DNA of 64,000 bases from Lentisphaeria bacterium (GCA_041690595.1 JAWLHB010000002.1:186001-250000); one strand, 5' to 3'. Numbered from the stretch's first letter, positions 11,683 to 28,194 are shown. Translations and numbers: made by a program. The notes: a model not told the origin generated them from the sequence alone.

Positions 11683-14528
11683 CACACTGTCTTGCTGGAA
11701 TCCTCGCCATGCTGACTGCTCTTTCGTTCGCTCAGGCCGACGAAGCCGTTTACCGGCCATCACCCGCCATGGCACTCTACCTCGTCAAAGCCGATGCCGC
11801 CCCGGAACCGCTGGCGCTGCGTCTGTATCGGGGCAACCGGCCTCAGGGGGACCGCATCACTCTCCGCCTCTTCGATCCCGAGGAAAACCTTGTACTCCGC
11901 CAGCATCTGGAACCCGGACAGGAGTTCCTCCATACCCTGCCTGGATCTGGAGAGATTGAGGGTATTCCGCTGCCCGCCTTTGACGCACCGGCCAGACCGC
12001 ATGAGTCGATGGCAACGACCCGCGTGGTGCTTGACGCGCCCGGCATCTGGCAAGCTCGGGTAGTCGGCGGCGACCACAACACCGTCGTTCATGTGGATCT
12101 TGACGCAAGCGTGCGTCGTGGGGTATCCTTTCAGAATGGCCGCTTCACACCGTGGCGCAACGATCTTTCGCAAGCCTGGTTCTATATTCCCCGCAATGCC
12201 CGTCGGCTGACCCTGCGCGGAGTTGGCGTGGAAGCCTGGGACCATCTGGGCGAGCGCCGCTTTCCGCCGGAGGAATACGATCCCAAAGGCCCTTTCACGA
12301 TCGATCTTGAAGCTACCGACGTCGTCTGGACACTGCGGTTTGCCGATCCGGCAACATGGCATTTCGTCGCCTCGGGCATCCCACTCATCCTGACGGAAGA
12401 TGAAGCGACGGCCCGCGCCATCGGCGGCTCGGTGGAGGTTCTCGACGATGGAACTGTCGTGGCCCACCGCTTTCAACGCCGCCTGGCAGAGCTACTGCCG
12501 CGTCTGCTGGAGCCAGCCAATGTGGGAGATACGGAAGAGCTTATCGCCCTCTTCGATTCGGAGCCGGAGCAATGGCTGGAAGGCAACCCGCTGCGAAACC
12601 AGCTGTTGCGGCAGCCCTACGGTTTCTTTCCACACCTCCTTTTCGCGCTTCGCGAGCAGCTGCTCGATCCGGAGAGCCACTGGGCGGGCACGATTGGCAA
12701 GGCGGTTTGGGCCGAGAGCCTGGCAGCCACGACGCCGGAGGACCGATGGGACTCCTTTCTGGGGGTACATCATGGGCAGGGCCGCAGTGGCACCTCGAGC
12801 AGTGCCTATGCGAAATACCTTGCCGACGCCTATACGCTGGACGCGCCATTCAATCCCTACCGTGGACGCCGGGAAGTCCTGTATCGAGCCGCCGCGGCGG
12901 CGTTTCGCGACTTGATGCTGCTTAACGAAAGCGAGATTTTTCCCGGAGCCGGCTCCGATCTCGACACCTATCCGGGCATGCCGGGTTTCGTCTATGGTGG
13001 GAGGCATTTCCCGGAGTTCGCCAAGGCCGCGCCTCATCTGCCGGAGGAGATTCGCGAGGCCTGGGCAGCGGGACTCCGCCGCATCGTCGACCGCCACTGG
13101 CCAGACGGCCTGGTAAGCTGTCGCAATCAGAGTTCCCATTTTCTGGTGGCGTGGCAGAACTTCGCGCTGGGCACCGGAGAGGCTGCCGATGCGGATCTGG
13201 CGCGCCGATTCGCGGCCCGCTTCGCACGCACCGCCATGCCCGCGGGCTACCATCGTGAGGCCGGCGGTCCCTGCGGTACATATCCCGGCATTCAACACTT
13301 CTACATGGCCGAGTATTATCGGCTCTCCGGCGACGCGGAGATGCTGGAATCGATCCGCCGCTCGTACAGATTCTACAATCATACCGTCGCACCCGAGCCG
13401 GACGGCAGAGTATTTGGCGGTTACAACTATACCCATCGTACGCCGCGCGGCTTCCATCAGGAACAATATGGAGGGGCCAGAAGGATCCTTGCGGATATCC
13501 TTCCGGAAGTCGGGTTGTGGGCACCGGAGCCTCCCAGCGAAGCAGAACAAGCCAAGAGCGCAGAAGCCCTTCAGGCCAGTGTCGGCAGGCCCTTTCCAGA
13601 GAAGCATCATTGCCTGGAATTGAACCTGAATGCCTGGCGCTACTGGACGGAGACGCCGAACCGAAGCGGCGTCTGGCCGGCCCGCGAGAAGGCCTCGTTC
13701 GTTCGTGATTTCGGTGGTGAGCTGATTGCCGTCAAGCGGCCGGGCTGGTATGCCGCCTTTTATGTCGGCAAACCCGCGGGGAGCCCCTTCTATCTCTATG
13801 GCGCGCATGGCGGCACCCGCCCGTTGCCCGATCATGCGGAAGATGCCGGCGGCGACATGTGGGCAACCTACACGACCAAGGGGACCGCGCGAGCTTTCAA
13901 CAATGGTGGCCTTACCCTCTTCTGGACTCCCGACTACGGCAACGCCATGCTGGCCGGCAAGACGGCGTTGACGCGCCATGGCCTCGTGGCTTTTGCCGAT
14001 GACAACACCCGCCATGCCGAAGATTATTTCCGAGTGGCCTATCAGCTTGACGAATCCGCCGGCACGCTCCGCTGCACCGGCCAGATGGAGAACCTGCCTC
14101 TTGCCTACGAACGCCTCTATACCTTTCACGACGATCACCTCCAGGTCGATCTGAAACTCACCGCCTCCGGCGACGTCACGTATCGCCGCCTGGTGGAAAA
14201 TCTCCCAGTCGCTGGGGGAAGCTGCAAGAGCGCCGGTGTCACGATTGCCGTCGACGGGGACGAATCGGCGGTGCAGCCGGAGGGAGTCGACGAGGCGCTT
14301 GGGGCACGCATCGAGCTGGCCACGGCGGCCACCGCCAGCGCTTCGCTTACCGATGACGATGGGCGTGGCCTGGATATCATCTTCGATAAGGCGCGCCCGA
14401 TTCGGCTTTGCCGAAGCGGCTTGGTCAACGGCGACATTCAGCACAATCGGCTCGAAATCGAGCTGCCCGCGACGCTGGCAGCTGGCGACACACTCACCTT
14501 GTCCTATCAACTCATCCCCAGGAGGTAA
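11679..14528 (+). CDS. Large secreted hypothetical protein (possible carbohydrate-active enzyme, helical core plus beta C-terminus)
   Basis: 949-aa ORF; signal peptide (…ALSFAQA); ATGA coupling to the LacI gene; no recognised catalytic signature. Confidence 0.7.
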   Translation: MTHCLAGILAMLTALSFAQADEAVYRPSPAMALYLVKADAAPEPLALRLYRGNRPQGDRITLRLFDPEENLVLRQHLEPGQEFLHTLPGSGEIEGIPLPAFDAPARPHESMATTRVVLDAPGIWQARVVGGDHNTVVHVDLDASVRRGVSFQNGRFTPWRNDLSQAWFYIPRNARRLTLRGVGVEAWDHLGERRFPPEEYDPKGPFTIDLEATDVVWTLRFADPATWHFVASGIPLILTEDEATARAIGGSVEVLDDGTVVAHRFQRRLAELLPRLLEPANVGDTEELIALFDSEPEQWLEGNPLRNQLLRQPYGFFPHLLFALREQLLDPESHWAGTIGKAVWAESLAATTPEDRWDSFLGVHHGQGRSGTSSSAYAKYLADAYTLDAPFNPYRGRREVLYRAAAAAFRDLMLLNESEIFPGAGSDLDTYPGMPGFVYGGRHFPEFAKAAPHLPEEIREAWAAGLRRIVDRHWPDGLVSCRNQSSHFLVAWQNFALGTGEAADADLARRFAARFARTAMPAGYHREAGGPCGTYPGIQHFYMAEYYRLSGDAEMLESIRRSYRFYNHTVAPEPDGRVFGGYNYTHRTPRGFHQEQYGGARRILADILPEVGLWAPEPPSEAEQAKSAEALQASVGRPFPEKHHCLELNLNAWRYWTETPNRSGVWPAREKASFVRDFGGELIAVKRPGWYAAFYVGKPAGSPFYLYGAHGGTRPLPDHAEDAGGDMWATYTTKGTARAFNNGGLTLFWTPDYGNAMLAGKTALTRHGLVAFADDNTRHAEDYFRVAYQLDESAGTLRCTGQMENLPLAYERLYTFHDDHLQVDLKLTASGDVTYRRLVENLPVAGGSCKSAGVTIAVDGDESAVQPEGVDEALGARIELATAATASASLTDDDGRGLDIIFDKARPIRLCRSGLVNGDIQHNRLEIELPATLAAGDTLTLSYQLIPRR

Positions 14529-15266: not shown

Positions 15267-15956
15267 TCAGAAATCCGCGCGCCAGTAGCGTTCTGGCACA
15301 ACGTAGTGGCCCGTGGGATTCAGTTCGTTCTTCCACCATCCGACATGGCCGTCCATGTAGACGCTGTTGACCCCGCCACGGTGGCGATAGCCAATGCTGT
15401 TCCCGTTGATGTAGTAGGGATGGAAACCGGTGCAGGCGGCGACTTGGGCATTAGCCTCGGAACCAGTGTCCATGATGTAAAGCTTGTCGGAGGGATTCCT
15501 CGCGGCGCCCCAGCGCGTCGCCCCTCGCCAACTGGTCCAGATCTCCGGAAAGTCGCGCACCTTGTTGTCCCAGTACAGCCAGAGCGCCAGGCCGTTCATG
15601 AAGTAGTTGGAGCCATGGTACCAGGTGGTCCAGCCGTACCGGTCAAAGTAATCGGGTGTCACCCGTTCCGAAGGGCAGAGGAAGACTTTGGTGTCATTGA
15701 TGTATTCCGCCCGCATGCGTTCGCGCCAGTCCCACAGGTAACTGCCGCCAATGCGGGCGGCGGTGGGAGGCGTGGCATCGTCATGATCGCTGCCGTAGAG
15801 CTGTCCGGCCGTGCCCAGTTGCCGCAGGTTGGACATGCAGTTGATCTCACGGGCGCGATCCCTTGCCTTGCTCAAGGCTGGCAACAGCATGCTCGCCAGA
15901 ACCGCAATCACAGCCACCACGACAAGAAGCTCGATCAGAGTGAAACGCTTGATCAT
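15267..15956 (-). CDS. Prepilin-type N-terminal cleavage/methylation protein with H-X9-DG motif
   Basis: [57 protein letters not shown]. Confidence 0.9.
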
Positions 15957-16141
15957 GAAAGAGAAGTGGGACCGATGGCTGAGGATCACTATACTGACTC
16001 CCGCAGGCAGATTATTGGGTTCACATAAAAAGGCATCATCCTGCGCAAGACGCTTGATCCGCGCTGTTCCTTACGCCATAATAGCCTGAACAACCCTGAA
16101 TTCAAGCCGCACAGCCATACACATAATCATACTTCTTCGCT

Positions 16142-16753
16142 TCAGCTGTTGCGGCGGCAGGAGCGGGCGAGATCGACGATGGTACGGCGACGGGCGTCGG
16201 GGGACTCTTCGTTGGCGGGCTCAGACGGATAGGCCACCGCCAGATCGCCGGCAAAGTTCTCCAGGCAGTGGCGACGCTCGGCGCCGAAGGCGGCGTCGGC
16301 CTTCAGGAAGTCGAGGCGAAGCTGCTCCTGCCGGGCCTGAGGCAGCGCCTTCTGGGCCAGAGGATAAAGGACGCGATCTTCTTTGTGGATGTGGTCGGCA
16401 TAGGTCGACGCCACGGCGCGGAGCAGCCCGGACAGTTCCGCGCCGTGGGATCCGGCTCGCAGCCGCGCGACCAGCTTGCGCGCCTCTTCATGTTCATGAC
16501 GCATCACGCCGAGGGGACAACCGTCACGCGGAAAACCTTCCGCTTCCAACGCAGGAAAGAGCAGCTCCTCTTCCTTGTTGTGATGGCAGCAGTCGGCATA
16601 ATCCTGCATGAAATGGGCAATGCGCCGTGGCAGATACACGTCGATCGGATCCCCGGCGTCGAGGGTCCGGGCCAGAGATTCGCAGGCCCCGGCGACGGCT
16701 TCAATGTGGCGATGCTCGCGCATGAGCACCTCGATCAGGCTTTCTTCAACCAT
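16142..16753 (-). CDS. Hemerythrin (HHE) domain protein
   Basis: LMREHRHI, HHNKEEELLFP, MRHEHEEAR, HIHKEDRVLYP motifs. Confidence 0.9.
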   Translation of the reverse strand: MVEESLIEVLMREHRHIEAVAGACESLARTLDAGDPIDVYLPRRIAHFMQDYADCCHHNKEEELLFPALEAEGFPRDGCPLGVMRHEHEEARKLVARLRAGSHGAELSGLLRAVASTYADHIHKEDRVLYPLAQKALPQARQEQLRLDFLKADAAFGAERRHCLENFAGDLAVAYPSEPANEESPDARRRTIVDLARSCRRNS

Positions 16754-17309
16754 TGGGGCTCCTCCGCTCAGGTGTGTGCAGACGAAAAGGAGAGGGGCGG
16801 GCTTCGCAGAAGTCGATGCAAAGGCCGCAGCCCACGCAGCGCTCTGAATTGAGTTCGGGGGTGCGACCTCCGCTCAGGGTGATGGCGCCCACGCCCGGTG
16901 GGCACGCGTAGGCGCAGTCGCTGCAGAGGGTCCCCTCGCGGGTCAGGCAGAAATCCAGGTCGAGGCTCACGCGCGCCAACGGCGACGGCGGGGCGGCTGT
17001 TGGTAAGAGAGCGCCCGACGGGCATGCCTGAGCGCAGGGAAAGTCGTCGCACCAGTGGCAGGGATTCTGGGCTGGCTGCATGGCGGGGGTTCCTTCTTCC
17101 GTCCCCGCTGCCGGCCCCAACGCCCGAATCGCCTGGTGCGGGCAGGAGTCGATGCAGGCGCTGCAACGCCGACAGGCCGCCACGAAGGCCTCCTCATCCG
17201 CCAGCGCGCAGGGAGGTCGGATTCGCGCCGACGGCGCCTTCACAGGGGCGGCCTCGAGCAAGCCCAGCGGGCCGAGACGCAGAAACTGTCGTCGAGAAAG
17301 AGCCGTCAT
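16746..17309 (-). CDS. NapF/MauM-like 4Fe-4S ferredoxin
   Basis: C-terminal part of ORF 16746..18872: MTALSRRQFL, IRPP, CRRCSACIDSCP, CHWCDDFPCAQACP, CSDCAYACP, CVGCGLCIDFC. Confidence 0.85.
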   Translation of the reverse strand: MTALSRRQFLRLGPLGLLEAAPVKAPSARIRPPCALADEEAFVAACRRCSACIDSCPHQAIRALGPAAGTEEGTPAMQPAQNPCHWCDDFPCAQACPSGALLPTAAPPSPLARVSLDLDFCLTREGTLCSDCAYACPPGVGAITLSGGRTPELNSERCVGCGLCIDFCEARPSPFRLHTPERRSPNG

Positions 17310-17317
17310 TCTTGACC

Positions 17318-18946
17318 TCACATACCGGTACGCATTTCCATCGGCTGGGCAATCAGCCAGACACTGAAACAGGAATAGAGTATCATGGTCACAAGCAGCG
17401 GTATCAGGCTGCGCCGCGCATCGCCCTGATTCTTGAAGAGGGTGTGCGCCACCCTTGCCGAAACCAATACTCCATAGACATGGCCGATGACGATAAAGGC
17501 AATCTGCAGGCACCAGATCGTCCTGAGGCTGAGCAGCGGTGCATAACCGCGACGGGCCGTACCGAAGAGGTTCCAGCCAAGCCCGAAGGGGTCGCTCAGC
17601 ACGGGCAGCAGGAATTGTCCTTCCATGAAGAAGTGCATGCCGTTGTGGGCAAGATGATAAAAGAGAGCGACCGGAATCACCGCATAAGCGAAGGCGGTGA
17701 AGATCCTGCCGGTGCTGACGCCGGCGCCGGGGGTGAGACCGCGCGCCGCTGCCGCGGTCATCCAGAAGAGGAGGATGGGCGCGGCGGTCATGGCCGTCAT
17801 CAGGAGGGTAAAGATCAGCTTCGGGCCCAACCCGAGATTGACGCGCATGAGGTCGCTGAGGCGCCACCAGATCGGCGTCATGGTGAGCCCGTGAAAGCTG
17901 GTCAAGGCCAGCATGACGATGGCCAGGATCGCCTCGTCCTTCTGGAAGCGTACTTTGTGGAAAAGATCGGCGCCGGGCGGTCGCAGGTTGATGGCGAGAT
18001 TGTCGCTGGGGCAGGCACGGACGCATTCCGTGCACAGGGTGCAGTACGTGTTCTCCTCCAGCTTGCCGGGATAGAGGCCGGTCGGGCACCCCACCGCCAG
18101 CTCGTTTCCCCGTACACAACTCTTTTCCGTGCAGGAGCCGCAGACATCCTGGGAGCGCGCGCGCAGTTCCAGTGGGCTGAAGAGGGCATAGAGGCCACTG
18201 ATCCGCCCGACCAGGCAGGCATGGCGGCAGAAGCCGCGCCGCTCGAAGATCACCGCCGCGCCAACCGCCAACGCCATCATGATCAGCGCCATCACCGCCG
18301 TCATCGCCGGCGATTTGGTCACGCCGTAGCCCAGCTCGAACCAGGTGAGCAGGATGAAGAGGATGAGCGCCGGGTAGACGTTGCGGGCAATTTTCGGCCA
18401 GGGCAGTTCGAAGCCCAGCTTCTTCCGGCGCGTGCGCAGCGAGCCTGCCGTCAGTAGCGAAGCCAACCCTTCCCAGGGGCAGATCGTGCAGAAGGCCTTG
18501 CCCAATCCGAGGATGAGGAAGATCAGCAGCGCCCACCACCAGGTCCACGTCAGGACCGTGGCGATATTGAGCCGCTGACTGCCGAAGAGGCCGGCGGAGA
18601 CAATCAGCAGCAGCGCCAGGATGGAGAGGCTCTGGGCGATCAGGGGAAAGGCCGGCCGCTTGATCAGCCCGGCAAGACGCGGTGAGCGCAGCAGGTCCAG
18701 GCGCCACGCGCGCCGTGCGGTGGCCGGACGTGGCGCGGTGAAGAGGTGGGATATGGCGATGATCGCCACCACCCCGACGATCGCCATCCAGATCGGAATT
18801 CCTTCCATGGTATGGGAGCTGACGGTCGTGCCGTCGCCCATATCGATGACCGTGGCATGCGAGCCTTCGCACATGCCGTTGGAACCTTCCATGCCGTAGG
18901 AGCCTTCCTGCATGGCGGGGGGATCCGCGATTTGATCAGCTGGCAT
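17318..18946 (-). CDS. Polytopic membrane protein with 4Fe-4S motifs (polyferredoxin, NapH/FtrD-like)
   Basis: FCTICPW, FCRHACLVG, CTLCTECVRACP motifs; about 10 hydrophobic helices; Met/His-rich N-terminus. Confidence 0.8.
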   Translation of the reverse strand: MPADQIADPPAMQEGSYGMEGSNGMCEGSHATVIDMGDGTTVSSHTMEGIPIWMAIVGVVAIIAISHLFTAPRPATARRAWRLDLLRSPRLAGLIKRPAFPLIAQSLSILALLLIVSAGLFGSQRLNIATVLTWTWWWALLIFLILGLGKAFCTICPWEGLASLLTAGSLRTRRKKLGFELPWPKIARNVYPALILFILLTWFELGYGVTKSPAMTAVMALIMMALAVGAAVIFERRGFCRHACLVGRISGLYALFSPLELRARSQDVCGSCTEKSCVRGNELAVGCPTGLYPGKLEENTYCTLCTECVRACPSDNLAINLRPPGADLFHKVRFQKDEAILAIVMLALTSFHGLTMTPIWWRLSDLMRVNLGLGPKLIFTLLMTAMTAAPILLFWMTAAAARGLTPGAGVSTGRIFTAFAYAVIPVALFYHLAHNGMHFFMEGQFLLPVLSDPFGLGWNLFGTARRGYAPLLSLRTIWCLQIAFIVIGHVYGVLVSARVAHTLFKNQGDARRSLIPLLVTMILYSCFSVWLIAQPMEMRTGM

Positions 18947-19547
18947 GATGAATACGGGGGTTGGTGGTTTCCGCTTGCACGGCTTGACGGCGATCCACCT
19001 GAATGCGGGCGCGCCGAGCCCCGATGATCAGGATCGCCACCAGCAGGCCGAGCGACAGGGCGATCCACTTGCCCCAGTGGATCTTCTGCGAGCTGAGCGC
19101 AAAGGGCATGATGATGGGCTCCACCTGCCCGGGCAGGTCGACGGCGAGCGCATACTTGCCGCCGGGTGGTAACTGGTCTTGAAGCGTATAGAGATTCTCC
19201 AGTTCGGAGGAGGCAAAGCGCAGGGAGCGCAAAGGCTTGTCGTCGCGCAGCAGCGTCAGGGTGAGCGGTCCGTCGTAGAGGCGGTTGTGGCGCAGATTGA
19301 AGAGGACCAGAAAGAGCCGCACCTCCTCGGGCTGCTGCGCATCCATCTTGTCGATGCCCTGGAAGTCGTAGACTACCAGCGAAAGCTCGTAGTCGTCGCT
19401 CTGCGCCAGGTACTCCTCGAGCGGTACCTGGGGATAGTTGTCGAAGTAGTTGAAATGAGGCAACCCCTTGAAGTGATGGCCGGGCGCGGGCGACACGCCG
19501 GCCAGAGTCGCCAGCAGTATGATCAGGTACAGCGATAGTCGATTCAT
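18936..19547 (-). CDS. Hypothetical exported protein with C-terminal membrane anchor
   Basis: Signal-like N-terminus followed by HHFKGLPHFNYF; C-terminal TM helix WIALSLGLLVAILIIG; overlaps both neighbours in the operon. Confidence 0.7.
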   Translation of the reverse strand: MNRLSLYLIILLATLAGVSPAPGHHFKGLPHFNYFDNYPQVPLEEYLAQSDDYELSLVVYDFQGIDKMDAQQPEEVRLFLVLFNLRHNRLYDGPLTLTLLRDDKPLRSLRFASSELENLYTLQDQLPPGGKYALAVDLPGQVEPIIMPFALSSQKIHWGKWIALSLGLLVAILIIGARRARIQVDRRQAVQAETTNPRIHHAS

Positions 19548-20482
19548 CGTGATTTCACTCCAACATGCAGACAGTTGACAGGACAGACCACCAGACATTC
19601 CCCGCAGAGGGAACAGTCGCGCGTTTCATCCGCACGAGGATTCACCCCCATCGGGCAGATCGTGGCGCACGAGTTGCAGCGGGACGGACAGGCGGGCGCG
19701 TGCCGATGCAGCCGCACCAGAGGGCGGCTGCCGATGGCCCCGAGCAGGCGGCCGGTCGGGCAGAGGTTGCGGCAGGTGAATTGCGAACCGAAGACCATAT
19801 CCAGGAGGGCGAAGACCAGGATGGCCCCAATACCGGCACTGAGCACCCCGAAGGCGAGTCCCTGAAAGAGGGTATGCCCGACGGCAAGATAGGGCAGGAG
19901 CAGGGCCCACAGCCCTTGGCCAAAGAGCCAGGTGGCTCCCAGTCCGCCCAGCAGCAGTCCCCACGCCACCCCCCGGTTCAGCGTGATCTCCGGCAAGAGC
20001 AGGAAGCGCCGGCAGGCCCGTCGAAGGCGACCGATCGTGAAGAAGAGCAGCGACGCCGGGCAGATGTAGCTGCAGAAGACCCGCCCGAAGAGCAGGGCCA
20101 GGAGCAGCGGCACCAGCAGCCCCAGCGCGAAGCCAAGCTCCAGGCCATGGCCGCGGCTGAGCACCGTCAGCGCCGCGATGGGATCCGTAAAAGGAACCCC
20201 CATCAAGCGGATCGACCAGGTCATGCCGCCGCTGCTTTGCGCTATCAGCAGTGGGTCGCCAAACAAGCCGAAGAAGGCCTCGGCCCGTTCGTAGAAGAAA
20301 CGTGTGGTGGAGCCCGCGCTCAACTCCACCAGCCGAGCGTTGTTGTGCGCCACCTTGAAGTTGATGTAGATGGTGTTCCAGGCAATCCCGCAGAGCAGCA
20401 GCAGTACGCCGACCCGTGTGACCACGGAGGTCAGGAGCAGGACCATGCCGCTCGGGAAGCGCTTGCGAAGGGGTGCAGCCAT
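19544..20482 (-). CDS. napH: NapH/MauN-like quinol dehydrogenase membrane subunit
   Basis: FTDP, GRVFCSYICP, CRNLCPTG, CNSCATICPMG, CSLCGECLVVCP; TGATG coupling with the napG-like gene. Confidence 0.8.
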   Translation of the reverse strand: MAAPLRKRFPSGMVLLLTSVVTRVGVLLLLCGIAWNTIYINFKVAHNNARLVELSAGSTTRFFYERAEAFFGLFGDPLLIAQSSGGMTWSIRLMGVPFTDPIAALTVLSRGHGLELGFALGLLVPLLLALLFGRVFCSYICPASLLFFTIGRLRRACRRFLLLPEITLNRGVAWGLLLGGLGATWLFGQGLWALLLPYLAVGHTLFQGLAFGVLSAGIGAILVFALLDMVFGSQFTCRNLCPTGRLLGAIGSRPLVRLHRHAPACPSRCNSCATICPMGVNPRADETRDCSLCGECLVVCPVNCLHVGVKSR

Positions 20483-21087
20483 CAGCTCGCGCCTCCATTG
20501 CCCGATGACCGTTGGTAACCGCGGGGCATGACCCGTATCGCCTGCGGCATCTGAACGCACGCCTGCTCGCACAGCCCGCATCCCACGCAATAGTCCGAGT
20601 TGACCTTGGGCTGTTCATAGAGCCCCACAGTCATGGCCTTTCCCGGCAGCGGGCAGGCATGATAGCATGACCCGCAGGTGCGCCCTGAAAAGGAATAACA
20701 GAGATCTTCCGATACTACCGCCGTTCCCATCCGCACCGCCAGCATGCCTTCCTGCGTCGCGGGAAGCTTCCGCAAGGCCCCCGTCGGGCAGACCTGGGTG
20801 CAGGCCATGCAGAGGATACACGCCTTCGCCCGCGGCTGGATGACCGGCGTCGCCAGATCATCCAGCCCCCGTTCGAAGTTCAGCATCCTGATGCAGGTGT
20901 TCGGGCAGACGCTCGCGCACTGACCGCACCCGATGCACAGATCGGCGAACTCCTCTTCCGGTCTGGCGCCGGGGGGACGCAACACCCGGTGCAGGCGCCA
21001 CCGCTCCGGCAACCGGCCAAGCAGCGCCAGCCCAAGCGGAGCGGCTGCCCCGGCAAGCAGACTGAGAATGAAGTTACGACGTTTCAT
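20482..21087 (-). CDS. napG: NapG/MauM-like periplasmic ferredoxin
   Basis: Tat-like MKRRNFI; LRPPGA; CIGCGQCASVCP, CILCMACTQVCP, CGSCYHACP, CVGCGLCEQAC. Confidence 0.82.
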   Translation of the reverse strand: MKRRNFILSLLAGAAAPLGLALLGRLPERWRLHRVLRPPGARPEEEFADLCIGCGQCASVCPNTCIRMLNFERGLDDLATPVIQPRAKACILCMACTQVCPTGALRKLPATQEGMLAVRMGTAVVSEDLCYSFSGRTCGSCYHACPLPGKAMTVGLYEQPKVNSDYCVGCGLCEQACVQMPQAIRVMPRGYQRSSGNGGAS

Positions 21088-21102
21088 GGCGTGGGGACGA
21101 CA

Positions 21103-23724
21103 TCATAGCAGCTCGACGCGAGCCGCGCATTTCTTGAAGTCGGCCTGTCCGGAGATCGGATCGAAGGCGCGGTGAGTGGTGCCGTTGGCCAGCCATCGGT
21201 TCTTTTCCGGATCCGCCGAATCGGCTACCGAAAGATTCCACGGGCTGAAGAGGAAGCCCTTCGGCACCGTATTTCTCGCCGGCCGAACCTTGGAGTCGAG
21301 GCCGATCGAGACCCGCGCCTCGATTGCCCCGCGACGGGTGGTGATGCGCACCCACTGTCCATCCTTGACCCCCAGCTCGGCAGCATCGTCGGGATGCATC
21401 TCGACGTACATCTCCGGCACGAGCTTGCTGGTGGTACCGGCGCGGATGGTCTTGCTGGTGTGGAAGTGTTCGTAGACGACGCCAGTGGCCCACCAGAAGG
21501 GATACTTGTCGGCCGGTACGGTGCCCGCCTTCTTGCCGAGAAACTCATGGTGCGGCAGTTCCGGTGTCAGTCCGGCATCCCGCGCCTTGACCAGCAGGTC
21601 GTAGCGGTCGATGATGTGCGCATTCGGTTCGACACCGTACTTCGAGAGTTCGTCCGTAATCTCGCGGTAGTTCGTGTAGTCCTGATGGCACATGTGAATG
21701 TGCAGCTTCCCGTCAGCGTGACGAAAGGCCCCGTACGGCTTGCCTGGCCAGTCGCCTTCCTGAGACATGTAACGCCGCTTGATGCCGCCGGCTTTCGCGA
21801 TTGCCGCCGTCGGCGCCGGCCACATGATACCGCGCAACTCCCGAATCTGCTGGTAGGGCGACTTGCCCGTCTCCTTCTCCACTTCCAGGATACCGGTCAG
21901 ATCCGAATCCGTCCCCTTCGAGGCTTTGATGAAATCCCGGAAGACATCCTCCGGATCATAGAAACCGTTGGCCTTCCGCTGGTAGGGGAAGATCTTCTTG
22001 CCGTCCAGCCCCAGCCGGTCGGCGATCATGATACCCTTGTCAATCACCATGTCCATGTCTGGGCGGCATCCCTTCACCGGATTGCCGGTGCCATCGGTAA
22101 CGAAAAGCCGCCGCTCCGACTGGACATAAAGGCCGCCCACCCACTCGCCCCAGGTGGCGGCGGGAAGGATCACGTCCGCATACAGGTTGTTCGGCGCATC
22201 CTTGTAGATCTCCTGCACCACGCAGAAGGTCTTGCTCAGGGCCGGCCGAACCAGATTGTTCACATCCGGCAGGTCGATATGTGTTGCATAGATCAGGAAC
22301 ATCACCAGAACATCATCCTTGAGCGCGCGCTCCATCATGCCCACTGCCATGCCTTTGTTTTCCATCTCCGCGACCGCGGCCAGCCGTTCCCGCGGGATGC
22401 CCCAGCAATCGGCCATGCGGTTGCGGTGCTCGACGTTGTCCAGCCCCTCGTTGAAGGGAAGTCGGCCCGTCAGGCCGCCGGTGAAGCGTTCGCCCATGGC
22501 GTTAGGCTGCCCGGTCTGCGAATGCGGCCCACAGCCGGGGCGCCCCACGTTGCCGGTCAGTGCCATCAGGTTGATGATGCTCACGGTGTTGTTCTGACCG
22601 TGCAGGTGCTGATTATAGCCGATGCCCCAGATACAGAGGACACCGCCCGTTCCCCGCTTGCGACCTTTCATCGTGGCTTCCGCCCAGTGGCGCGCGATCT
22701 CGTAGATCTTCTCCGCGGGGACCATCGTCCGGTCCTCGACCTCACTCGGCTTGTAACCCTTCTTCACCTCCTCGACGTAACTCTCCCAGCCGGCGGTGTG
22801 CTCCTTGAGGAAGGTCCAGTCGATTGCCTCCGGGTGCCGCTCGAGGAGCGCGTACGCGATCGCGTTATGGATCGAGATGTCACCATTGATGGTGGGGAAG
22901 TGGTAGCTGTTGTTCGAGTTGACCGCCTCCAGTCCCTGCACCGTCCCCGTCCGCCGGGGATCGACCACCAGCGTCGGAATATCGTTCTTCGACTTGTGGT
23001 CGGCGACCCGCCAGAAGAGGATGGGATGCGATCCGCGGGCATTGTGTCCCCAGAAGCAGATCATGTCGGCAAGCTCCACGTCATCGTAGCAGGTGGGCGG
23101 CGTATCCGAGCCCAGGGACTTGTAGTAACCCGTCACTGCTGAGGTCATGCACATGCGCGCATTCGCCTCGATGGTATTGGAGCCGATGATGCCCTTCATC
23201 AGGATGTTTTCCAGGTACTGCCCTTCCAGCGTCAGCTGCCCGGAGCCATAGAGCCCTACGCTGTTGCCCCCGCGCGCCTTGACGATTTCGGCCACCCGAT
23301 CGGCGATCAGCTCCTCGGCCTCGTGCCAGCTCGCTTCACGGAAGTGTTGCGGATCGAAGGAGCCCTTCGTCGCCGACACATGTCCCCGCAGGGGATCCGA
23401 CATGTCCTTGCGGATCAATGGCTTATCCAGGCGGTTGACATAGATCGCCTCCGCCGAGGTCAACCCCTTGATGCACTGCAGCCCTTTGTTCGTCGGGTGA
23501 TCCTTGTCTGGAATGATGTTGGTGATCCGGCCCTTGCGCGTCTGAATGATGGTGCCGCAGCCGACACCGCAGTAAGGACAGGCAGCCAGAAGATTGGTTG
23601 GCGCTTCCTGTTTCTCCAGTTCGATCTCTTCCCCTGGGGCGACGGCCCAGCCTTTGCTTGAGGCAAGCGCAGCCGCGGTGGCGGCAGTGGCGGCGGTTCC
23701 CTGGATGAATGTACGTCGTTTCAT
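21103..23724 (-). CDS. Tat-exported Mo-bisPGD oxidoreductase of the nitrate reductase (NapA/NasA) family
   Basis: MKRRTFIQG Tat signal; CPYCGVGC…CIKG 4Fe-4S motif; YGSGQL; EANARMCMTSA (Cys Mo ligand); TGQPNAMG; C-terminal VEMHPDDA, FDPISGQADFKKCA. Confidence 0.9.
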   Translation of the reverse strand: MKRRTFIQGTAATAATAAALASSKGWAVAPGEEIELEKQEAPTNLLAACPYCGVGCGTIIQTRKGRITNIIPDKDHPTNKGLQCIKGLTSAEAIYVNRLDKPLIRKDMSDPLRGHVSATKGSFDPQHFREASWHEAEELIADRVAEIVKARGGNSVGLYGSGQLTLEGQYLENILMKGIIGSNTIEANARMCMTSAVTGYYKSLGSDTPPTCYDDVELADMICFWGHNARGSHPILFWRVADHKSKNDIPTLVVDPRRTGTVQGLEAVNSNNSYHFPTINGDISIHNAIAYALLERHPEAIDWTFLKEHTAGWESYVEEVKKGYKPSEVEDRTMVPAEKIYEIARHWAEATMKGRKRGTGGVLCIWGIGYNQHLHGQNNTVSIINLMALTGNVGRPGCGPHSQTGQPNAMGERFTGGLTGRLPFNEGLDNVEHRNRMADCWGIPRERLAAVAEMENKGMAVGMMERALKDDVLVMFLIYATHIDLPDVNNLVRPALSKTFCVVQEIYKDAPNNLYADVILPAATWGEWVGGLYVQSERRLFVTDGTGNPVKGCRPDMDMVIDKGIMIADRLGLDGKKIFPYQRKANGFYDPEDVFRDFIKASKGTDSDLTGILEVEKETGKSPYQQIRELRGIMWPAPTAAIAKAGGIKRRYMSQEGDWPGKPYGAFRHADGKLHIHMCHQDYTNYREITDELSKYGVEPNAHIIDRYDLLVKARDAGLTPELPHHEFLGKKAGTVPADKYPFWWATGVVYEHFHTSKTIRAGTTSKLVPEMYVEMHPDDAAELGVKDGQWVRITTRRGAIEARVSIGLDSKVRPARNTVPKGFLFSPWNLSVADSADPEKNRWLANGTTHRAFDPISGQADFKKCAARVELL

Positions 23725-23754
23725 GGGGTACTCCTTCGTGTAAATCGATACGGG

Positions 23755-25803
23755 TTAATCTTGCTGATGACGCAGATAGGTGATGATGTCGTGCACATCG
23801 TCCTCCTGAAGCGAAGCCAGCCCCTCCGCGCCGATAAAGGCGCGCATGGCAGTGCCAACTCTTCCCTGGCGGACCGTTTGAATGATGTAGTCGTCGCTGG
23901 CTGCTTTCAGGAAACCGGGAAGGCCGATCCCGGGTCCGACGCCGCCGGCGCTGTAGCCCTTCCCGCCCGGCGCGTGGCACGAGGAGCAGTACTGCTGGTA
24001 GGCCGCCTTGCCGGCCCCAACATCTCCATGCACCCGCTTGGTGTTGTCGACATGGATGCTGACTGGATTCTCCGGCGGATTGGCACGCAGCCACGCCAGG
24101 ATGTCGTTCACGTCATCCTCGCTCAGATCCGGCCGCGGCACCATGGCCGTTCCCGTCCTGCCTTCACGAATGGCGGTTCTGATAAAGCTGTCCGAGGCGA
24201 TGGCCAGAAAATCGCGGTTGCGGATGGCCGGTGCCATCCCCGGCTTGCCTTGTCCATCGTCCTGATGGCAGGACGAACAATTGGCGCTGAAGAGCTTCTT
24301 GCCGTGAACCGGATCAAGGGTTGTCTTCGGCGCCTGGCTGACCGGTGCCGAAGGGGCCGGAACGCGCGGTACTTCCAGGCTGCGCAGGTAGGCTACGATA
24401 TCCCTCGCATCGTCCTCAGAGAGGTTCGCCAGACCATTGGCCCCAACAAACGACCGCATCGGCGTTCCCGCGCGGCCGAGCTTCAGCGTCTGCATGATGA
24501 AATCGTCACTGGCTACATTGAGGAAGCCGTCCAGCCCGATACCCGGACCGCTGCTGCCTGCGCTGTAGCCTTCGCCCCGCGGCCCATGGCAGGAGGAGCA
24601 GTAGCGGACATAATGGCCGGCCCCGGCCGCCACGTCACCGTTGTACACCTTGTGCGGGTCAACCGTGACCTGCACCGGATTGGCGGTCGGCATGGCACGA
24701 AGCCAGGCGACGATGGCCGACAGCTCCTCCTCACCAAGATCCTTCCGCGCCGCCATCGTGGTGCCCGGTCGCCCCTCCTGAATGGTCGCCTTAATGAAGT
24801 CATCCGACGCCAACGCCAGAAAGTCACGGTTGCGAATGCTGGGAGCGAGGCCGACCCGGCCGAATCCATCATCCTGATGGCAGGAGGAGCAGTTGGCGGC
24901 AAAGAGCTTGCCGCCGGCGGCCACCGGACTCAACCCCGCGATGTCAATGCCGCCCTGATCGCCCGATCCATCAGCCAATGAGCCCGCGCCGGGGAGAGCA
25001 AGCGTCGCGAGGTAAGAGGCCAGATCGCGCATCTGTCCATCATCCAGCGCCTGAGCCATCGGCCGCATCATCGCGCCGGCGGCATCCTTGGGATCGCTAC
25101 CGCGAATCCCTTCCTTGAAATTCCGCATCTGCGTCAGCAGATACCAGTCGTACTGACCGGCGAGGGGGGGTGCGTTCAACGCCTTGTTGCCGCCGGCGTC
25201 CGCCCCATGGCACGAAACACAGGTGCCATACAATTGTTTTCCGCGTGCCACATCACCATCGAGCGATGGCGCCGGCGCGGCAACCTTCGCCTCTCGCATC
25301 GACGCAATGTAGTCCGCCACCTGGCTTACCGCCTCTTTCGTGGAGAGCCCCTGGACCATGCCGGTCATCTGGGAACCAAGCGTATCGCGCGGGTCGCCGC
25401 CACGCACTTTGTTGCGATAATTATCCACCTGTCGCTCGATATACCAGCTATCCAGTTGGCGCAGAGACGGCGCTTTCAGTTGCGCGTTGCCCTCGCCGGA
25501 CTGACCGTGGCAGGCGCCGCACGCCAGGTAATGGCTCTTGCCGGGGTGCTTTCCACCCGCCGACACCACCAGTGCCTGTGGTGCCGAGTCCGCCAGCCCC
25601 ATGGAAAGCCGGGCTTCATAGGTCGCGATCTTTTCCCGATCCTGCGAGATCCGTTCGCGAGCCTGCCAGTACAGATTCAAGACGCCGAAGAAGATGACGC
25701 TGAAAAGCACCCCGCCCGCCACCAGAAGGATCTCCAGAAAGAAACGGGGTACGGGCAAGCGCCGGGCAGATGATTCGTCGGTTGGTTCGGGAGCGCTGGA
25801 CAT
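23755..25803 (-). CDS. Membrane-anchored six-haem class I cytochrome c (c4-like dihaem plus duplicated dihaem module)
   Basis: Six CxxCH motifs (CGACH, CVSCH, 4x CSSCH), each followed by a candidate distal Met; N-terminal TM helix. Confidence 0.9.
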   Translation of the reverse strand: MSSAPEPTDESSARRLPVPRFFLEILLVAGGVLFSVIFFGVLNLYWQARERISQDREKIATYEARLSMGLADSAPQALVVSAGGKHPGKSHYLACGACHGQSGEGNAQLKAPSLRQLDSWYIERQVDNYRNKVRGGDPRDTLGSQMTGMVQGLSTKEAVSQVADYIASMREAKVAAPAPSLDGDVARGKQLYGTCVSCHGADAGGNKALNAPPLAGQYDWYLLTQMRNFKEGIRGSDPKDAAGAMMRPMAQALDDGQMRDLASYLATLALPGAGSLADGSGDQGGIDIAGLSPVAAGGKLFAANCSSCHQDDGFGRVGLAPSIRNRDFLALASDDFIKATIQEGRPGTTMAARKDLGEEELSAIVAWLRAMPTANPVQVTVDPHKVYNGDVAAGAGHYVRYCSSCHGPRGEGYSAGSSGPGIGLDGFLNVASDDFIMQTLKLGRAGTPMRSFVGANGLANLSEDDARDIVAYLRSLEVPRVPAPSAPVSQAPKTTLDPVHGKKLFSANCSSCHQDDGQGKPGMAPAIRNRDFLAIASDSFIRTAIREGRTGTAMVPRPDLSEDDVNDILAWLRANPPENPVSIHVDNTKRVHGDVGAGKAAYQQYCSSCHAPGGKGYSAGGVGPGIGLPGFLKAASDDYIIQTVRQGRVGTAMRAFIGAEGLASLQEDDVHDIITYLRHQQD

Positions 25804-25890
25804 AAGGCTTCTCGTCAGTTCAAAATGTTGATCTCTGGGTGAATCTCCCGACCGTCCGCAGCGCGCAGACAGGTTGGCATTAAAGGAATA

Positions 25891-25908
25891 TCAGTATTCT
25901 AGTACTGA
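25891..25908. promoter_or_regulatory. Palindromic candidate operator in the divergent promoter
   Basis: TCAGTA-ttctag-TACTGA inverted repeat in the AT-rich spacer between the cytochrome gene and moeA. Confidence 0.35.
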
Positions 25909-26007
25909 AATGCAAGTTTGCTCTTGAAAAAAGTCTTTTCGCGGTGCAGCTTGATCTGGAGAACGCAGCCCCTCCCCTGCTGCACAAGCGATAAGGAGAT
26001 CGCGATA

Positions 26008-27234
26008 ATGATCACTCTGGAAGAAGCCTGGACAAGAATTCTGGCCGCATCCACGGCCCTGCCGCCGGTGGTTCTGCCACTGGAGGAAGCCGCGGACAGG
26101 TGGCTGGCTTCGCATGTCGCCGCCGATCGCGACATGCCGCCGCACGATCGCGCAGCCATGGATGGTTTCGCGGTCGCCAGCAGGGATCTGCGCGATGGCC
26201 CGACTACTCTGCGCGTGGCGGGTGAAGTGGCCGCCGGCGCGAAGATGTCAACGCCACTCACCCCCGGCGCCTGCCTGCGGATCTACACCGGCGCGAATCT
26301 ACCCCCAGGCTGTGACGCGGTCGTACCGGTGGAAGTGACCTCACAGCGCACCTTCAGCGACACCATGCAGGCGGAAGTCACCTTCAGCGGTCCAGTGGAG
26401 TCCGGCGCCCACATCTTCAAACAGGGCGAGAACGGGCGGCAGGGCGATGCGATTCTGAGAACCGGCTCCCGCCTCGAGGCAATCCAGATCGGCCTTTGCG
26501 CGGCGGTCGGCCAGACGCAGGTCATGGTCCACGGCCTGCCGCGCGTCTCGATCCTCACCACCGGCGCCGAGTTGGTCTCCTCCACCGTCGCCGCCGCCGT
26601 TCATCAGACACGTGACAGCAATGGGCCGCTGCTCGAGGCCGCCCTGCTTCAGGCTGGTTTTCCGGCGCACCCGCCGCGCCGGGTCCCGGACGATGCCGCG
26701 GCCACCGTGCAGGCGTTGCGCCAGAGTGCCGGCCAGGCGGAGGTTGTCATCATCACCGGCGGCGTCTCCGCGGGGCGTCACGACTATGTGCCCGGCGCGA
26801 TGGCGGCGCTGGCGACCATCCACTATCACGGCGTCGCCATGAAGCCCGGCAAGCCTCAGCTCTTTGCTGCCTCCGCCGACGGCACCCTCTTCTTCGGCCT
26901 CCCCGGCAATCCGGTGAGCGCCCTCTGCGGACTCCACGAGTTCATCCTGCCGACCCTGCGCCGGCTGGCGGGCTGCCTACCTGAAGCCTGTCGTCCATGC
27001 TGGCGCATGCCACTTGCCTCTCCGGTCAAGGGGCGTGCGGATCGGCAGCGCCTCATGATGGCCCGCCTCGTCACGACCCAGCATGGCCTGTCCGCCGATC
27101 CCGTGAGCAACAGGGGATCTGCCGATCTGGTGGCTGCGGCGATGGCCGACGGCGTCATCGTACTCCCCTGTCGCGATGTCGCGCTGTCGGCAGGCGACCA
27201 GATCGATTTCCGCCCCTGGAGAAGCTTCCGATGA
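26008..27234 (+). CDS. moeA: Molybdopterin molybdotransferase MoeA
   Basis: PPHDRAAMDGFA, IYTGA, TGAEL, DSNG, TGGVSAG…DYV, MKPGKP, GLPGNPVS; AAGGAG RBS. Confidence 0.95.
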   Translation: MITLEEAWTRILAASTALPPVVLPLEEAADRWLASHVAADRDMPPHDRAAMDGFAVASRDLRDGPTTLRVAGEVAAGAKMSTPLTPGACLRIYTGANLPPGCDAVVPVEVTSQRTFSDTMQAEVTFSGPVESGAHIFKQGENGRQGDAILRTGSRLEAIQIGLCAAVGQTQVMVHGLPRVSILTTGAELVSSTVAAAVHQTRDSNGPLLEAALLQAGFPAHPPRRVPDDAAATVQALRQSAGQAEVVIITGGVSAGRHDYVPGAMAALATIHYHGVAMKPGKPQLFAASADGTLFFGLPGNPVSALCGLHEFILPTLRRLAGCLPEACRPCWRMPLASPVKGRADRQRLMMARLVTTQHGLSADPVSNRGSADLVAAAMADGVIVLPCRDVALSAGDQIDFRPWRSFR

Positions 27235-28193
27235 AAGAGCCATCGACCGGTTGCTCGCTGCGCCTTTCGGTTACCGACCGCTGTCAGTTTCGCTGCAGCT
27301 ACTGCCTGCCCCGCCAGGGGGTTCACTTTCTGCCCCGACGAGAGTTGCTGAGTGACGTGCAACTGGTTGCCTGCGTGACGCGCCTCCATGAGGCGGTCGG
27401 TCTCAACAAGCTACGCATCACGGGCGGCGAGCCCCTCTTGCGGCCGCGCCTCCCTGAGCTGATTGGCGCCATGGCCAGCCTCGGCATTCCAGAGATCGCG
27501 ATGACCACCAACGGCCAGCTTCTGGCGAAGCACGCTACGGAGCTGCGCCGCCAGGGTCTTCAGCGCCTCAACGTCAGCCTCGATTCACTCCAACCTGAAA
27601 TCTTCGCGAAGCTCTCCCATGGGGGCAGCCTCGCCGCCACACTTGCCGGCATCGACGCCGCACTGGAGGCCGGTCTGCGGCCACTCAAGCTCAACACCGT
27701 CGTGATGCGCGGCATCAATGACCACGAGGTGCCCGACCTGGTCGATTTTGCCATGGGGCGCGGCTGCACCATCCGCTTTCTCGAACTGATGCCGATCGGT
27801 CCGGCTGCCGCCGACTTCCAGACCCTCTTTGTACCGGCGGCCGAGGTACAGAGCCGGCTCGAAGCATGCTACACGCTCAGCCAGCTCCCCTATCGCGCCG
27901 GTGGCACCAGCCGCGACTTCCAAGCCGTCGATGGCGGCGGACGTACAACCACCGTCGGTTTCATCTCCGCCACATCCAAGCCCTTCTGCGGCGGTTGTCG
28001 GCGACTTCGCCTGACCGCAACAGGCGAGCTGATTGGCTGCCTGGCCCGCTCCAAAGGAATCAGCCTGCGCCCCCTGCTCGACGCCGGCGCCGAACCTTCG
28101 GCGGTCGCCGCCGCCATCACCGACGCGCTGGCCCAGAAGCGTCACCGCCCCGTCTTCGAGCAAGGGCACACGATGGCCACCATGGGAGGCTGA
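27231..28193 (+). CDS. moaA: GTP 3',8-cyclase MoaA
   Basis: LRLSVTDRCQFRCSYC, RITGGEPL, TTNG, FLELMP, FCGGCRRLRLT…C, terminal MGG. Confidence 0.95.
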   Translation: MKEPSTGCSLRLSVTDRCQFRCSYCLPRQGVHFLPRRELLSDVQLVACVTRLHEAVGLNKLRITGGEPLLRPRLPELIGAMASLGIPEIAMTTNGQLLAKHATELRRQGLQRLNVSLDSLQPEIFAKLSHGGSLAATLAGIDAALEAGLRPLKLNTVVMRGINDHEVPDLVDFAMGRGCTIRFLELMPIGPAAADFQTLFVPAAEVQSRLEACYTLSQLPYRAGGTSRDFQAVDGGGRTTTVGFISATSKPFCGGCRRLRLTATGELIGCLARSKGISLRPLLDAGAEPSAVAAAITDALAQKRHRPVFEQGHTMATMGG

Positions 28194-28194
28194 G

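Follow-up and report, generated by a model that had tools for sequence, protein, structure and literature searches.

How electrons are delivered to a periplasmic nitrate reductase-like enzyme that is encoded without NapB, NapC or NapD is the question raised by a gene cluster of a Lentisphaeria bacterium (GCA_041690595.1). The cluster lies at positions 16142-25803 of a stretch of 64,000 nucleotides (JAWLHB010000002.1:186001-250000), here referred to as the window, and consists of eight co-directional genes on the minus strand, recognised from the listing and translation of open reading frames (ORFs). An original prediction, made from the sequence of the window, had described eight tightly packed or overlapping minus-strand genes, and all of them were found in the order and at the positions that it gave. 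We interpret the cluster as a distinct, widely distributed Nap-like system and, as far as its sequence can be read, as probably a nitrate reductase fed through cytochrome c. The eight genes, in the direction of transcription, are as follows.

23755-25803, minus strand: membrane-anchored hexahaem class-I cytochrome c of 682 residues (Pfam Cytochrom_C and Cytochrome_CBB3)
21103-23724, minus strand: catalytic subunit of 873 residues, predicted to be exported by the twin-arginine translocation (Tat) pathway and to carry molybdenum-bis(pyranopterin guanine dinucleotide) (Mo-bisPGD); Fe4S4, Molybdopterin and Molydop_binding domains; here called the Mo enzyme
20482-21087, minus strand: NapG-like periplasmic polyferredoxin with a twin-arginine leader and Fer4 domains
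19544-20482, minus strand: NapH-like membrane FeS protein (Fer4_5), putative quinol dehydrogenase subunit; the ORF is open to 20590
18936-19547, minus strand: His-motif protein, an exported or bitopic beta-sandwich protein with no Pfam or NCBIfam match
17318-18946, minus strand: NapH2, a second NapH-like FeS membrane protein, with its likely start at M12 (18913)
16746-17309, minus strand: NapF/NapG-like cytoplasmic polyferredoxin, with NCBIfam NapG and NapF matches below cut-off
16142-16753, minus strand: hemerythrin-domain protein (Pfam Hemerythrin, 84 bits)

All gaps or overlaps between neighbouring genes are at most 30 bp, and several start codons overlap stop codons, with both TGATG and ATGA junctions present. 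For instance, the likely ATG of the NapH-like gene overlaps the napG stop codon in a TGATG junction that has base 20482 in common, ATGA at 19547-19544 combines the napH stop codon with the ATG of the His-motif gene, and there is an overlap of 8 nt between the napF-like stop and the start of the hemerythrin gene. Third-position GC is 0.74-0.82 in the eight frames, which are therefore taken as coding, and the arrangement lies far beyond chance because it recurs in the 78 related loci that were fetched. Positions 16142-25803 are a real operon-like cluster. Model searches of the cluster gave no match to NapB, NapD or NapC, in agreement with the absence of all three that had been claimed.

The Mo enzyme keeps the twin-arginine leader and the N-terminal 4Fe-4S cysteine motif of canonical NapA, and NapA is its best NCBIfam model, although at 346 bits against a cut-off of 904, and 323 against 930.55 (NF010055 / TIGR01706). 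The alpha-subunit model of formate dehydrogenase (Fdh-alpha, TIGR01591) gives 317 bits against a cut-off of 666, the assimilatory NasA/NasC/NarB models 291 against 1000 (NasA) and 248 against 1100, all below cut-off, and the AioA model 116 bits. Among solved structures the best relative is NapA of Desulfovibrio desulfuricans (2jio, 259 bits), followed by those of Escherichia coli and Campylobacter jejuni. Nas enzymes are cytoplasmic and have no Tat leader, whereas the Mo enzyme does have one. A search among 1.84 billion representatives clustered at 50% identity yielded only four close ones, P0121 (54% identity), P0122 (49%), P0123 (43%) and P0124 (40%), beyond which full-length representatives fall to approximately 36-41% identity and at most 335 bits.

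The placement of the Mo enzyme was addressed with a tree of 47 rows rooted on two formate dehydrogenase (Fdh) representatives, built by a quick IQ-TREE run with support from the Shimodaira-Hasegawa-like approximate likelihood ratio test (SH-aLRT) only; 50 representatives were labelled with NCBIfam models. The window protein, nine further family members and P0121-P0124 form one clade with SH-aLRT support of 100% and a stem of 0.85, the 11 NapA-type representatives, long and short forms alike, form a separate clade (99%), and the cytoplasmic Nas representatives form another (100%). Rooted on Fdh, the tree puts the family with the Nap and Nas sequences, and the family clade, the NapA clade and one further sequence join at a weak node (85%). 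Constraining the family to group with six long-form NapA representatives costs 48.4 log-likelihood units, with a p-value of 0.009 in the approximately unbiased (AU) test for a group that was chosen after the tree was known. By its sequence, the catalytic subunit is a cousin of NapA in a sister clade of its own and not a member of canonical NapA, and the check proposed with the original prediction, namely whether the enzyme nests inside canonical NapA, has come out against nesting. One of the four close representatives, P0122, is from Microaerobacter geothermalis, a cultured thermophile that reduces both nitrate and nitrite; its genome also has NarGHJI (PMC9119079), so that nitrate reduction by this organism says nothing about the function of P0122.

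Residues near the active site were tabulated from an alignment to D. desulfuricans NapA, whose numbering applies below unless E. coli is named, and from an alignment of 152 rows comprising 116 family members longer than 850 residues (out of 120 listed), 3 sisters, 11 NapA, 10 Nas, 10 other periplasmic sequences and 2 Fdh.

Cys140, the Mo ligand: C192 in the window; C in 116/116 of the family; C in 10/11 NapA
Met141: M193 in the window; M in 116/116 of the family; M in 10/11 NapA
Asp155: D207 in the window; D in 116/116 of the family; D in 11/11 NapA
Arg354, the funnel arginine: R413 in the window; R in 116/116 of the family; R in 10/11 NapA
Glu156: T208 in the window; T in 115/116 of the family; E in 10/11 NapA
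Met308: I368 in the window; I in 116/116 of the family; M in 10/11 NapA
Asp/Glu355: F414 in the window; L, F, I or Y in 116/116 of the family; E or D in 11/11 NapA
Ala before Glu218 (E. coli): R230 in the window; R in 116/116 of the family; A in 9/11 NapA
Glu218 (E. coli): G231 in the window; G in 116/116 of the family; E in 10/11 NapA
Arg720 (E. coli): V749 in the window; V in 116/116 of the family; R in 10/11 NapA
Trp725 (E. coli): F754 in the window; F in 116/116 of the family; W in 11/11 NapA

The Cys140/Met141/Asp155/Arg354 core is common to the family, NapA and Nas, and the position of Met141 is occupied by His in both Fdh representatives. At the position of Arg720, arginine is found in Nas (10/10) and Fdh (2/2) as well as in NapA. 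Glu156, Asp355, Glu218, Arg720 and Trp725 are listed as funnel or conserved pterin-patch residues in the accessible part of a 2026 Nap review (PMC13223375). Thus, the core that defines the chemistry appears to be of the nitrate-reductase type, in a funnel without two of its acidic residues and with a rearranged pterin environment.

The six CXXCH motifs of the window cytochrome are at residues 95, 195, 305, 402, 509 and 606, downstream of a single N-terminal transmembrane helix, and Pfam Cytochrom_C matches in six stretches and Cytochrome_CBB3 in five. Each of the six haem domains is of class I (Cytochrom_C or Cytochrome_CBB3), with a GTxM-type methionine downstream. Residues 286-485 and 486-682 represent a tandem duplication of a CcoP-like dihaem unit, 62% identical to each other, and the N-terminal dihaem part is 27-28% identical to the two tandem units. 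The best solved relative of one such unit is CcoP of the Pseudomonas stutzeri cbb3 oxidase (3mk7_C, 54 bits), followed by actinobacterial QcrC, the cytochrome domains fused to Cu nitrite reductases, and cytochrome c4; NapB is absent from the solved relatives found in this search of PDB sequences. CcoP, QcrC and cytochrome c4 have the same repeated dihaem unit, but in the cluster the units are single or tandem, membrane-anchored and encoded beside a Mo enzyme rather than an oxidase or bc complex.

The number of haems is not fixed across the family, as evidenced by the CXXCH motifs in the cytochrome frames adjoining the Mo gene at 55 loci, the window being counted apart. There are two haems in 23 of these frames, four in 26, six in two (L031 and L043) and three in three, and one frame is truncated. 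The six-haem protein of the window is therefore a rare long form built from a conserved class-I dihaem unit. The original prediction had a six-haem cytochrome taking the place of NapB; six class-I haems are indeed present in the window, but the usual number is two or four. We infer that this cytochrome is the electron donor to the Mo enzyme.

The distribution of the cluster was surveyed by matching stretches by pattern in representative genomes of 185,579 species; 296 of the 300 stretches so obtained code for a relative, and 78 loci were retrieved. At E<=0.001, 3983 of the 8000 candidate proteins scored match the Mo enzyme, and close homologues are 68-82% identical across phyla. The hosts among metagenome-assembled genomes (MAGs) belong to Verrucomicrobiota, Opitutales, Planctomycetota, Lentisphaeria/Lentisphaerota, Latescibacterota, Cloacimonadota, Omnitrophota, Eisenbacteria, Bdellovibrionota/Oligoflexia, Bacteroidota and Myxococcota, and the isolate Lentisphaera profundi carries a Mo enzyme that is 77% identical. 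In the phylum of the window itself the enzyme was found in only 2 of 301 sampled genomes, that of the window included, so this sample is useless for co-occurrence statistics. This rarity, together with the fact that the closest relatives are in other phyla, is suggestive of lateral transfer.

Neighbouring genes were identified with phmmer searches of the window proteins against six-frame ORFs of the 78 loci, many of which end at contig ends. NapG was found near the Mo gene in 73/78 loci, NapH in 71/78, the cytochrome in 69/78, the His-motif protein in 64/78, NapH2 in 54/78 and the NapF-like protein in 45/78. Gene order was counted in the 54 loci whose sequence extends 5.5 kb or more beyond the Mo gene on the downstream side. 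The exact order of the window (cytochrome, Mo enzyme, NapG, NapH, His-motif protein, NapH2, NapF) occurs in 28 of them, from many phyla, and all five downstream genes are present in 36; in six, from Bdellovibrionota and Bacteroidota, the cytochrome gene follows the Mo gene. Two of the 54 are without the cytochrome, nine without NapF at the threshold used, six without NapH2 and three without most components. In the survey for recurrence of the eight-gene order that had been proposed as a check, the order thus holds for seven genes across phyla but not for the eighth, the hemerythrin, which is near the Mo gene in 0/78 loci. The hemerythrin protein, whose similarity to RIC/DnrN is weak (37 bits against a cut-off of 300), is accordingly a window-specific addition and is dropped from the system. 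In the case of 13/78 loci, a second and more divergent NapG/NapH pair lies between the first NapG and NapH (for instance, L006:13266-13889).

The remaining conserved genes encode a set of FeS and membrane proteins. The NapG-like protein carries a twin-arginine leader and four Cys clusters, and NapG is its best match (NF007012, 129 bits against a cut-off of 269; MauM/NapG, 100 bits). NapH (NF007013) is likewise the best match of the NapH-like protein, at 98 bits against a cut-off of 234, and its transmembrane helices, CxxCP and two 4Fe-4S motifs are present. The NapF-like protein scores 77 bits with NapG models and 59 bits with NapF (TIGR00402, cut-off 102), all below cut-off, and a twin-arginine-like RRxLF-type motif without a hydrophobic region is found in 40/49 homologues. 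In E. coli and Wolinella, NapF is a cytoplasmic maturation factor that docks on NapA or NapH, and by analogy the most likely role of the NapF-like ferredoxin is to mature the catalytic subunit in the cytoplasm.

The two extra membrane components that had been claimed are the His-motif protein and NapH2, both conserved near the Mo gene in the counts given above. The His-motif protein has an invariant HHxKGxPHxxYxxNYPQxP directly after its first hydrophobic helix in an alignment of 28 sequences, and an AlphaFold2 model (predicted local distance difference test, pLDDT, 86.6) has an eight-strand beta-sandwich between an N-terminal helix and a C-terminal transmembrane helix. No Pfam family, the YtkA-like PF13115 included, matches it even at E<=10, and Foldseek against the PDB found nothing at E<=1e-3, the best of the generic beta-sandwich rows having an E-value of 6e-3; a language-model feature score of 0.95 in the Atlas to clusters automatically named 'YtkA-like' is a lead only. 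In the case of NapH2, the N-terminal half is NapH-like, with a weak NCBIfam NapH/MauN match (32 bits, E<=0.01), and 35 sequences keep C153/C156 (CxxCP), C240/C244 (Cx3C) and two full 4Fe-4S motifs. The C-terminal helical membrane domain has four His that are invariant in the same 35 sequences (H352, H431, H434 and H438). It was modelled with a pLDDT of 91.1, and gave nothing at E<=1e-3 in Foldseek, no PDB sequence match at E<=0.1, and unnamed clusters only, at 0.85, in the Atlas feature search. A fold relative was also sought for this domain with a wide VIA-align search, and was rejected, as the best Z of 7.7 is at the noise level for helical bundles.

Stop-to-stop frames revealed fusions among NapH, the His-motif protein and NapH2 in 24 loci. 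A single ORF encodes NapH plus the His-motif protein in 16 loci, all three proteins in seven Myxococcota-type loci (L057, L058, L065, L068, L071, L072 and L076), and the His-motif protein together with NapH2 in L055. Since the three are fused in some genomes, they probably form one membrane complex. The topology implied by the fusions would be a cytoplasmic FeS domain, a transmembrane helix, a periplasmic sandwich, a transmembrane helix and then NapH2. A predicted complex of NapH2 and the His-motif protein, with interface scores (ipSAE) of 0.51, 0.41 and 0.51 against 0.00 for the best control, a partner pLDDT of 69 and contact agreement of at least 54%, lends weak support to the association, for which the fusions are the main evidence. 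NapH2 and the His-motif protein have no characterised relatives, and the fusions are a new observation.

In the genome of the window (8.1 Mb, 97% complete), the Molybdopterin domain (MopB) was found in only two genes, that of the Mo enzyme and an ArrA-like one, in a search that did not include NarG's own model. The second is ArrA/ArxA-like, on contig C94 (L080:520-3315, minus strand; 1119 bits against an ArrA cut-off of 1600), and is a candidate divergent arsenate reductase or arsenite oxidase. The Pfam models of NapD and NapB (PF03927 and PF03892) found no match in this genome, NapM not having been searched, and the NapC model matches only NrfH, at 34 bits; the search for napB and napD elsewhere in the genome, proposed as a check, therefore turned up neither. 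An nrfH-nrfA pair is present on contig C49 (L081:1438-3605, minus strand), with NrfH at 172 bits, over the cut-off, and NrfA, at 397 bits in Pfam, short of the equivalog cut-offs of NCBIfam. The only NosZ match in the genome is one of 28.6 bits, below cut-off. Sequencing runs sought for expression data comprised four DNA rows of a single study, with small word shares, and no RNA. With a sole candidate nitrate reductase and NrfHA in the same genome, a route from nitrate through nitrite to ammonium is coherent.

For the wider family, 50 of the 78 host genomes were searched, selected so as to favour longer contigs and a broad taxonomic range. NarG scores over its cut-off in one and below it in another, with no match at E<=1e-60 in 48/50, and the NapA model scores over its cut-off in 10, just under in three and as weaker NapA-like matches in two, with none at E<=1e-60 in 35. 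NapB-like matches of 22-35 bits were found in eight genomes, all eight adjoining second NapA-type genes, as do most, but not all, of the NapD matches over cut-off in seven genomes. NrfA is strong in five genomes, NirK is found in 5-6 and NirS in 2-3. For most hosts the Mo enzyme is, by these model matches, the only candidate nitrate reductase. The genomes G320, G324, G329-G333 and G339 have a separate, shorter NapA-type gene, in frames of approximately 775-815 residues with NapD-like matches beside them; the NapB-like frames beside the shorter NapA-type genes are 217-290 residues long, and in G333 the NapB-like match is in a 1190-residue frame, a possible NapB variant or fusion.

From the above, a pathway may be proposed in which a membrane module consisting of NapH, NapH2 and the His-motif protein would oxidise quinol and hand the electrons to the Tat-exported periplasmic polyferredoxin NapG. 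The next carrier would be the membrane-anchored class-I (His/Met) c-type cytochrome with its one to three dihaem units, and from there electrons could reach the [4Fe-4S] cluster and the Cys-ligated Mo-bisPGD, where periplasmic nitrate would be reduced to nitrite. Instead or additionally, the cytochrome may take electrons from a bc-type complex, as in C. jejuni Nap, an input that would make the pathway electrogenic. In the organism of the window, NrfHA could carry nitrite on to ammonium.

Several observations sit uneasily with nitrate as the substrate. Seven positions near the pterin and substrate funnel are altered in 115-116/116 family members, several of them named as conserved in NapA, and with two acidic residues missing from the funnel the substrate could be a different one. 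Canonical NapA, with NapD-like and/or NapB-like neighbours, is also present in 10/50 hosts (and three more just under cut-off), and the retention of both systems in a sizeable minority of hosts speaks for a non-identical role and against simple redundancy. NrfA, NirK or NirS is found in only 13-14/50 host genomes, and the flanks of the loci surveyed have no recurrent nitrate/nitrite transporter or nitrogen-oxide regulator. High-potential His/Met cytochromes are, moreover, atypical as Nap donors. Because the funnel acids are lost and the pterin environment is rearranged, the reduction of another oxyanion (iodate, chlorate/perchlorate or selenate), as a separate respiratory specificity on a Nap scaffold, is kept as a live rival, if a rather unlikely one. 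The invariant changes in the funnel and pterin patch, with the loss of Glu156 and Asp/Glu355, would fit such a specificity, as would the co-occurrence of canonical NapA in 10-13/50 hosts, the many host MAGs whose titles refer to marine or low-oxygen waters, and the dihaem MauG/MbnH-type enzyme with a YtkA domain that is encoded beside the cluster in five loci. C. jejuni NapA itself, according to the accessible part of a phylogenetic study of NapA, already reduces chlorate and perchlorate (PMC12769810). On the other side, the Cys-Met-Asp-Arg core is that of NapA and Nas, the known iodate, chlorate and selenate reductases are in other MopB clades (the AioA model reaching the 116 bits given above), and the Mo enzyme is the sole candidate nitrate reductase beside NrfHA in its own genome.

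The class-I nature of all six haem domains, with their GTxM-type Met motifs, and the nearest solved relatives of the cytochrome (CcoP, QcrC and cytochrome c4) would also suit electron flow in the reverse direction, whereby the enzyme would oxidise nitrite to nitrate, or act on another donor, and pass electrons to high-potential c cytochromes and then to an oxidase. C. jejuni NapA reportedly interconverts nitrate and nitrite reversibly, going by the title of a work in the reference list of a Nap review. An oxidative role is nonetheless improbable, as the host MAGs are of a heterotrophic type, 71-73/78 loci have a quinol module of the NapGH type, and we know of no physiological precedent for nitrite oxidation through a Nap scaffold. 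It is less probable still that low scores are all that sets the cluster apart from an ordinary canonical Nap operon. In favour of such a reading, the top match is NapA both in NCBIfam and in the PDB, and homologues of NapG, NapH and NapF are present. It is contradicted by the tree and the signature residues, and the score of 346 bits against 904, the separate clade (stem 0.85, AU p 0.009), the identity of at most 54% to representatives outside the family, the failure to find NapB or NapD, and the two extra conserved genes also speak against it. Least probable of all is a periplasmic formate dehydrogenase, for although the Fdh-alpha score of 317 bits is near that of NapA, it is below the cut-off of 666, the residue after the ligand Cys is Met in 116/116 family members where the two Fdh representatives have His, and the tree groups the family with Nap and Nas.

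As to whether the architecture has been described before, the accessible part of the 2026 review distinguishes four nap operon types, napEDABC, napDAGHB, napCMADGH and napAGHBFLD (PMC13223375). The lack of NapB is in itself no novelty, as an NapB-less Nap with the tetrahaem NapM is already known, in the parts of the sources seen, from D. desulfuricans, Thermosulfurimonas/Dissulfuribacter and Caldithrix (PMC5276818, PMC5317091). The family clade goes unmentioned in the accessible part of a 2025 NapA phylogeny of 251 homologues from cultured organisms (PMC12769810), a survey of the MopB superfamily, in the portion available, puts NapA and Nas together in a single group of poor resolution (PMC10100899), and the accessible text of a paper on some of the host MAGs mentions only 'napAB' (PMC10732223). 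In the open-access literature searched, supplements being outside that search, the architecture is not described. Together with the separate clade and the conserved order, this supports the claim of a distinct and apparently undescribed architecture, in which the cytochrome would be the electron conduit.

Of the known systems, the epsilonproteobacterial Nap (napAGHBFLD; Wolinella succinogenes, C. jejuni) has in common with the cluster a Tat-exported, Cys-ligated Mo-bisPGD subunit, NapG/NapH in place of NapC, and a NapF-type ferredoxin, and electron input to C. jejuni Nap by way of a cytochrome bc complex has been shown genetically, according to the accessible part of the source (PMC6195509). 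Unlike the epsilonproteobacterial Nap, the cluster has an enzyme in a separate clade, class-I di-, tetra- or hexahaem cytochromes that replace NapB, no NapD that could be found, and two extra conserved genes, those for the His-motif protein and NapH2. In the D. desulfuricans-type Nap (napCMADGH, napMADGH in Thermosulfurimonas/Dissulfuribacter, and Caldithrix), as far as the sources cited above for it are accessible, NapB is likewise missing, NapGH is present and a cytochrome gene lies directly upstream. Here, however, the partners are a small tetrahaem NapM and NapD, whereas the cluster has CcoP/c4-like His/Met units and no NapD was found, and the NapA of approximately 750 residues falls in the canonical clade, as judged by the NCBIfam labelling of short representatives.

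Membrane modules of a possibly similar design are found outside the Nap enzymes. CcoG/FixG with FixH, and NosR/NirI, combine a NapH-like membrane core, with CxxCP and 4Fe-4S motifs, and a further domain in the periplasm, a beta-sandwich or another, a topology that the fusions imply for the cluster. The extra proteins of the cluster have no NCBIfam or Pfam match to CcoG, FixH or NosR at the thresholds used, and no solved relative was found for the four-His domain. The nos clusters of clade II, with NosGH and NosC1/NosC2, follow the same concept, whereby a NapGH-like module and class-I c cytochromes feed a periplasmic reductase, but there the terminal enzyme is the copper protein NosZ and not a Mo enzyme.

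The surroundings of the cluster within the window include a divergently transcribed set of genes for molybdenum cofactor proteins and molybdate transport, and the remaining features are as follows.

25804-25917, no strand: divergent intergenic region between the operon and moeA, with an 18-bp palindrome inside
25918-30855, plus strand: MoeA, MoaA, a MOT1-type molybdate transporter of the major facilitator superfamily (MFS), and MOSC with MoCF_biosynth, all from Pfam matches

Homologues of MoaA or MoeA also flank some of the related loci. The palindrome, TCAGTA-N6-TACTGA, is perfect, is located at 25891-25908 in the divergent promoter region, and occurs only once in the 8.1-Mb genome. It was considered as a regulatory motif and rejected, as no copy is found upstream of the other loci, the one match (L036) being approximately 8 kb upstream of the Mo gene, and it yields no regulon. 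Elsewhere in the window, two plus-strand ORFs at 11679-14528 (949 residues) and 8925-10433 (502 residues) are rich in GC at third positions and match no Pfam family at E<=1e-5, and a DUF1559 protein (15267-15989) and a sulfatase (5568-6995) are also encoded, both of which point to a host of the PVC type. In the flanks of the related loci, the commonest family occurs in 11/78 and has no Pfam match, and an MFS transporter that flanks four loci is Tet-like and not NarK. The five loci with an N-terminal Pfam YtkA domain joined to a dihaem CCP/MauG/MbnH-type enzyme beside the cluster are L012, L014, L016, L033 (L033:15349-16857, minus strand) and L051, and NapH2 is lacking in three of them (L012, L014 and L033).

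The cluster is widely conserved and unstudied, and in it class-I cytochromes stand with a sister clade of NapA in place of NapB or NapM, presumably as electron donors to it. Standard gene surveys probably miss it: the curated models do not name the family, and source labels vary between 'molybdopterin-dependent oxidoreductase', 'ferredoxin-nitrate reductase' and 'selenocysteine-containing dehydrogenase'. The family might, although we hold this to be doubtful, represent the unrecognised core of a marine oxyanion respiration, for instance of the iodate or chlorate type, or a reversible nitrate/nitrite enzyme working on high-potential cytochromes. Were the enzyme of either kind, the new specificity would lie in the invariant loss of two acidic residues from the funnel and in the exchanged arginine of the pterin patch, and the fused NapH, His-motif protein and NapH2 would represent a new histidine-rich, metal-bearing transmembrane redox module. 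If, on the preferred interpretation, the family respires nitrate, then gene-based inventories of the nitrogen cycle in low-oxygen waters would undercount nitrate reducers or file them as assimilatory, and periplasmic nitrate reduction could conserve energy where a Nap-type enzyme is supplied through cytochrome c, as has been proposed for C. jejuni.

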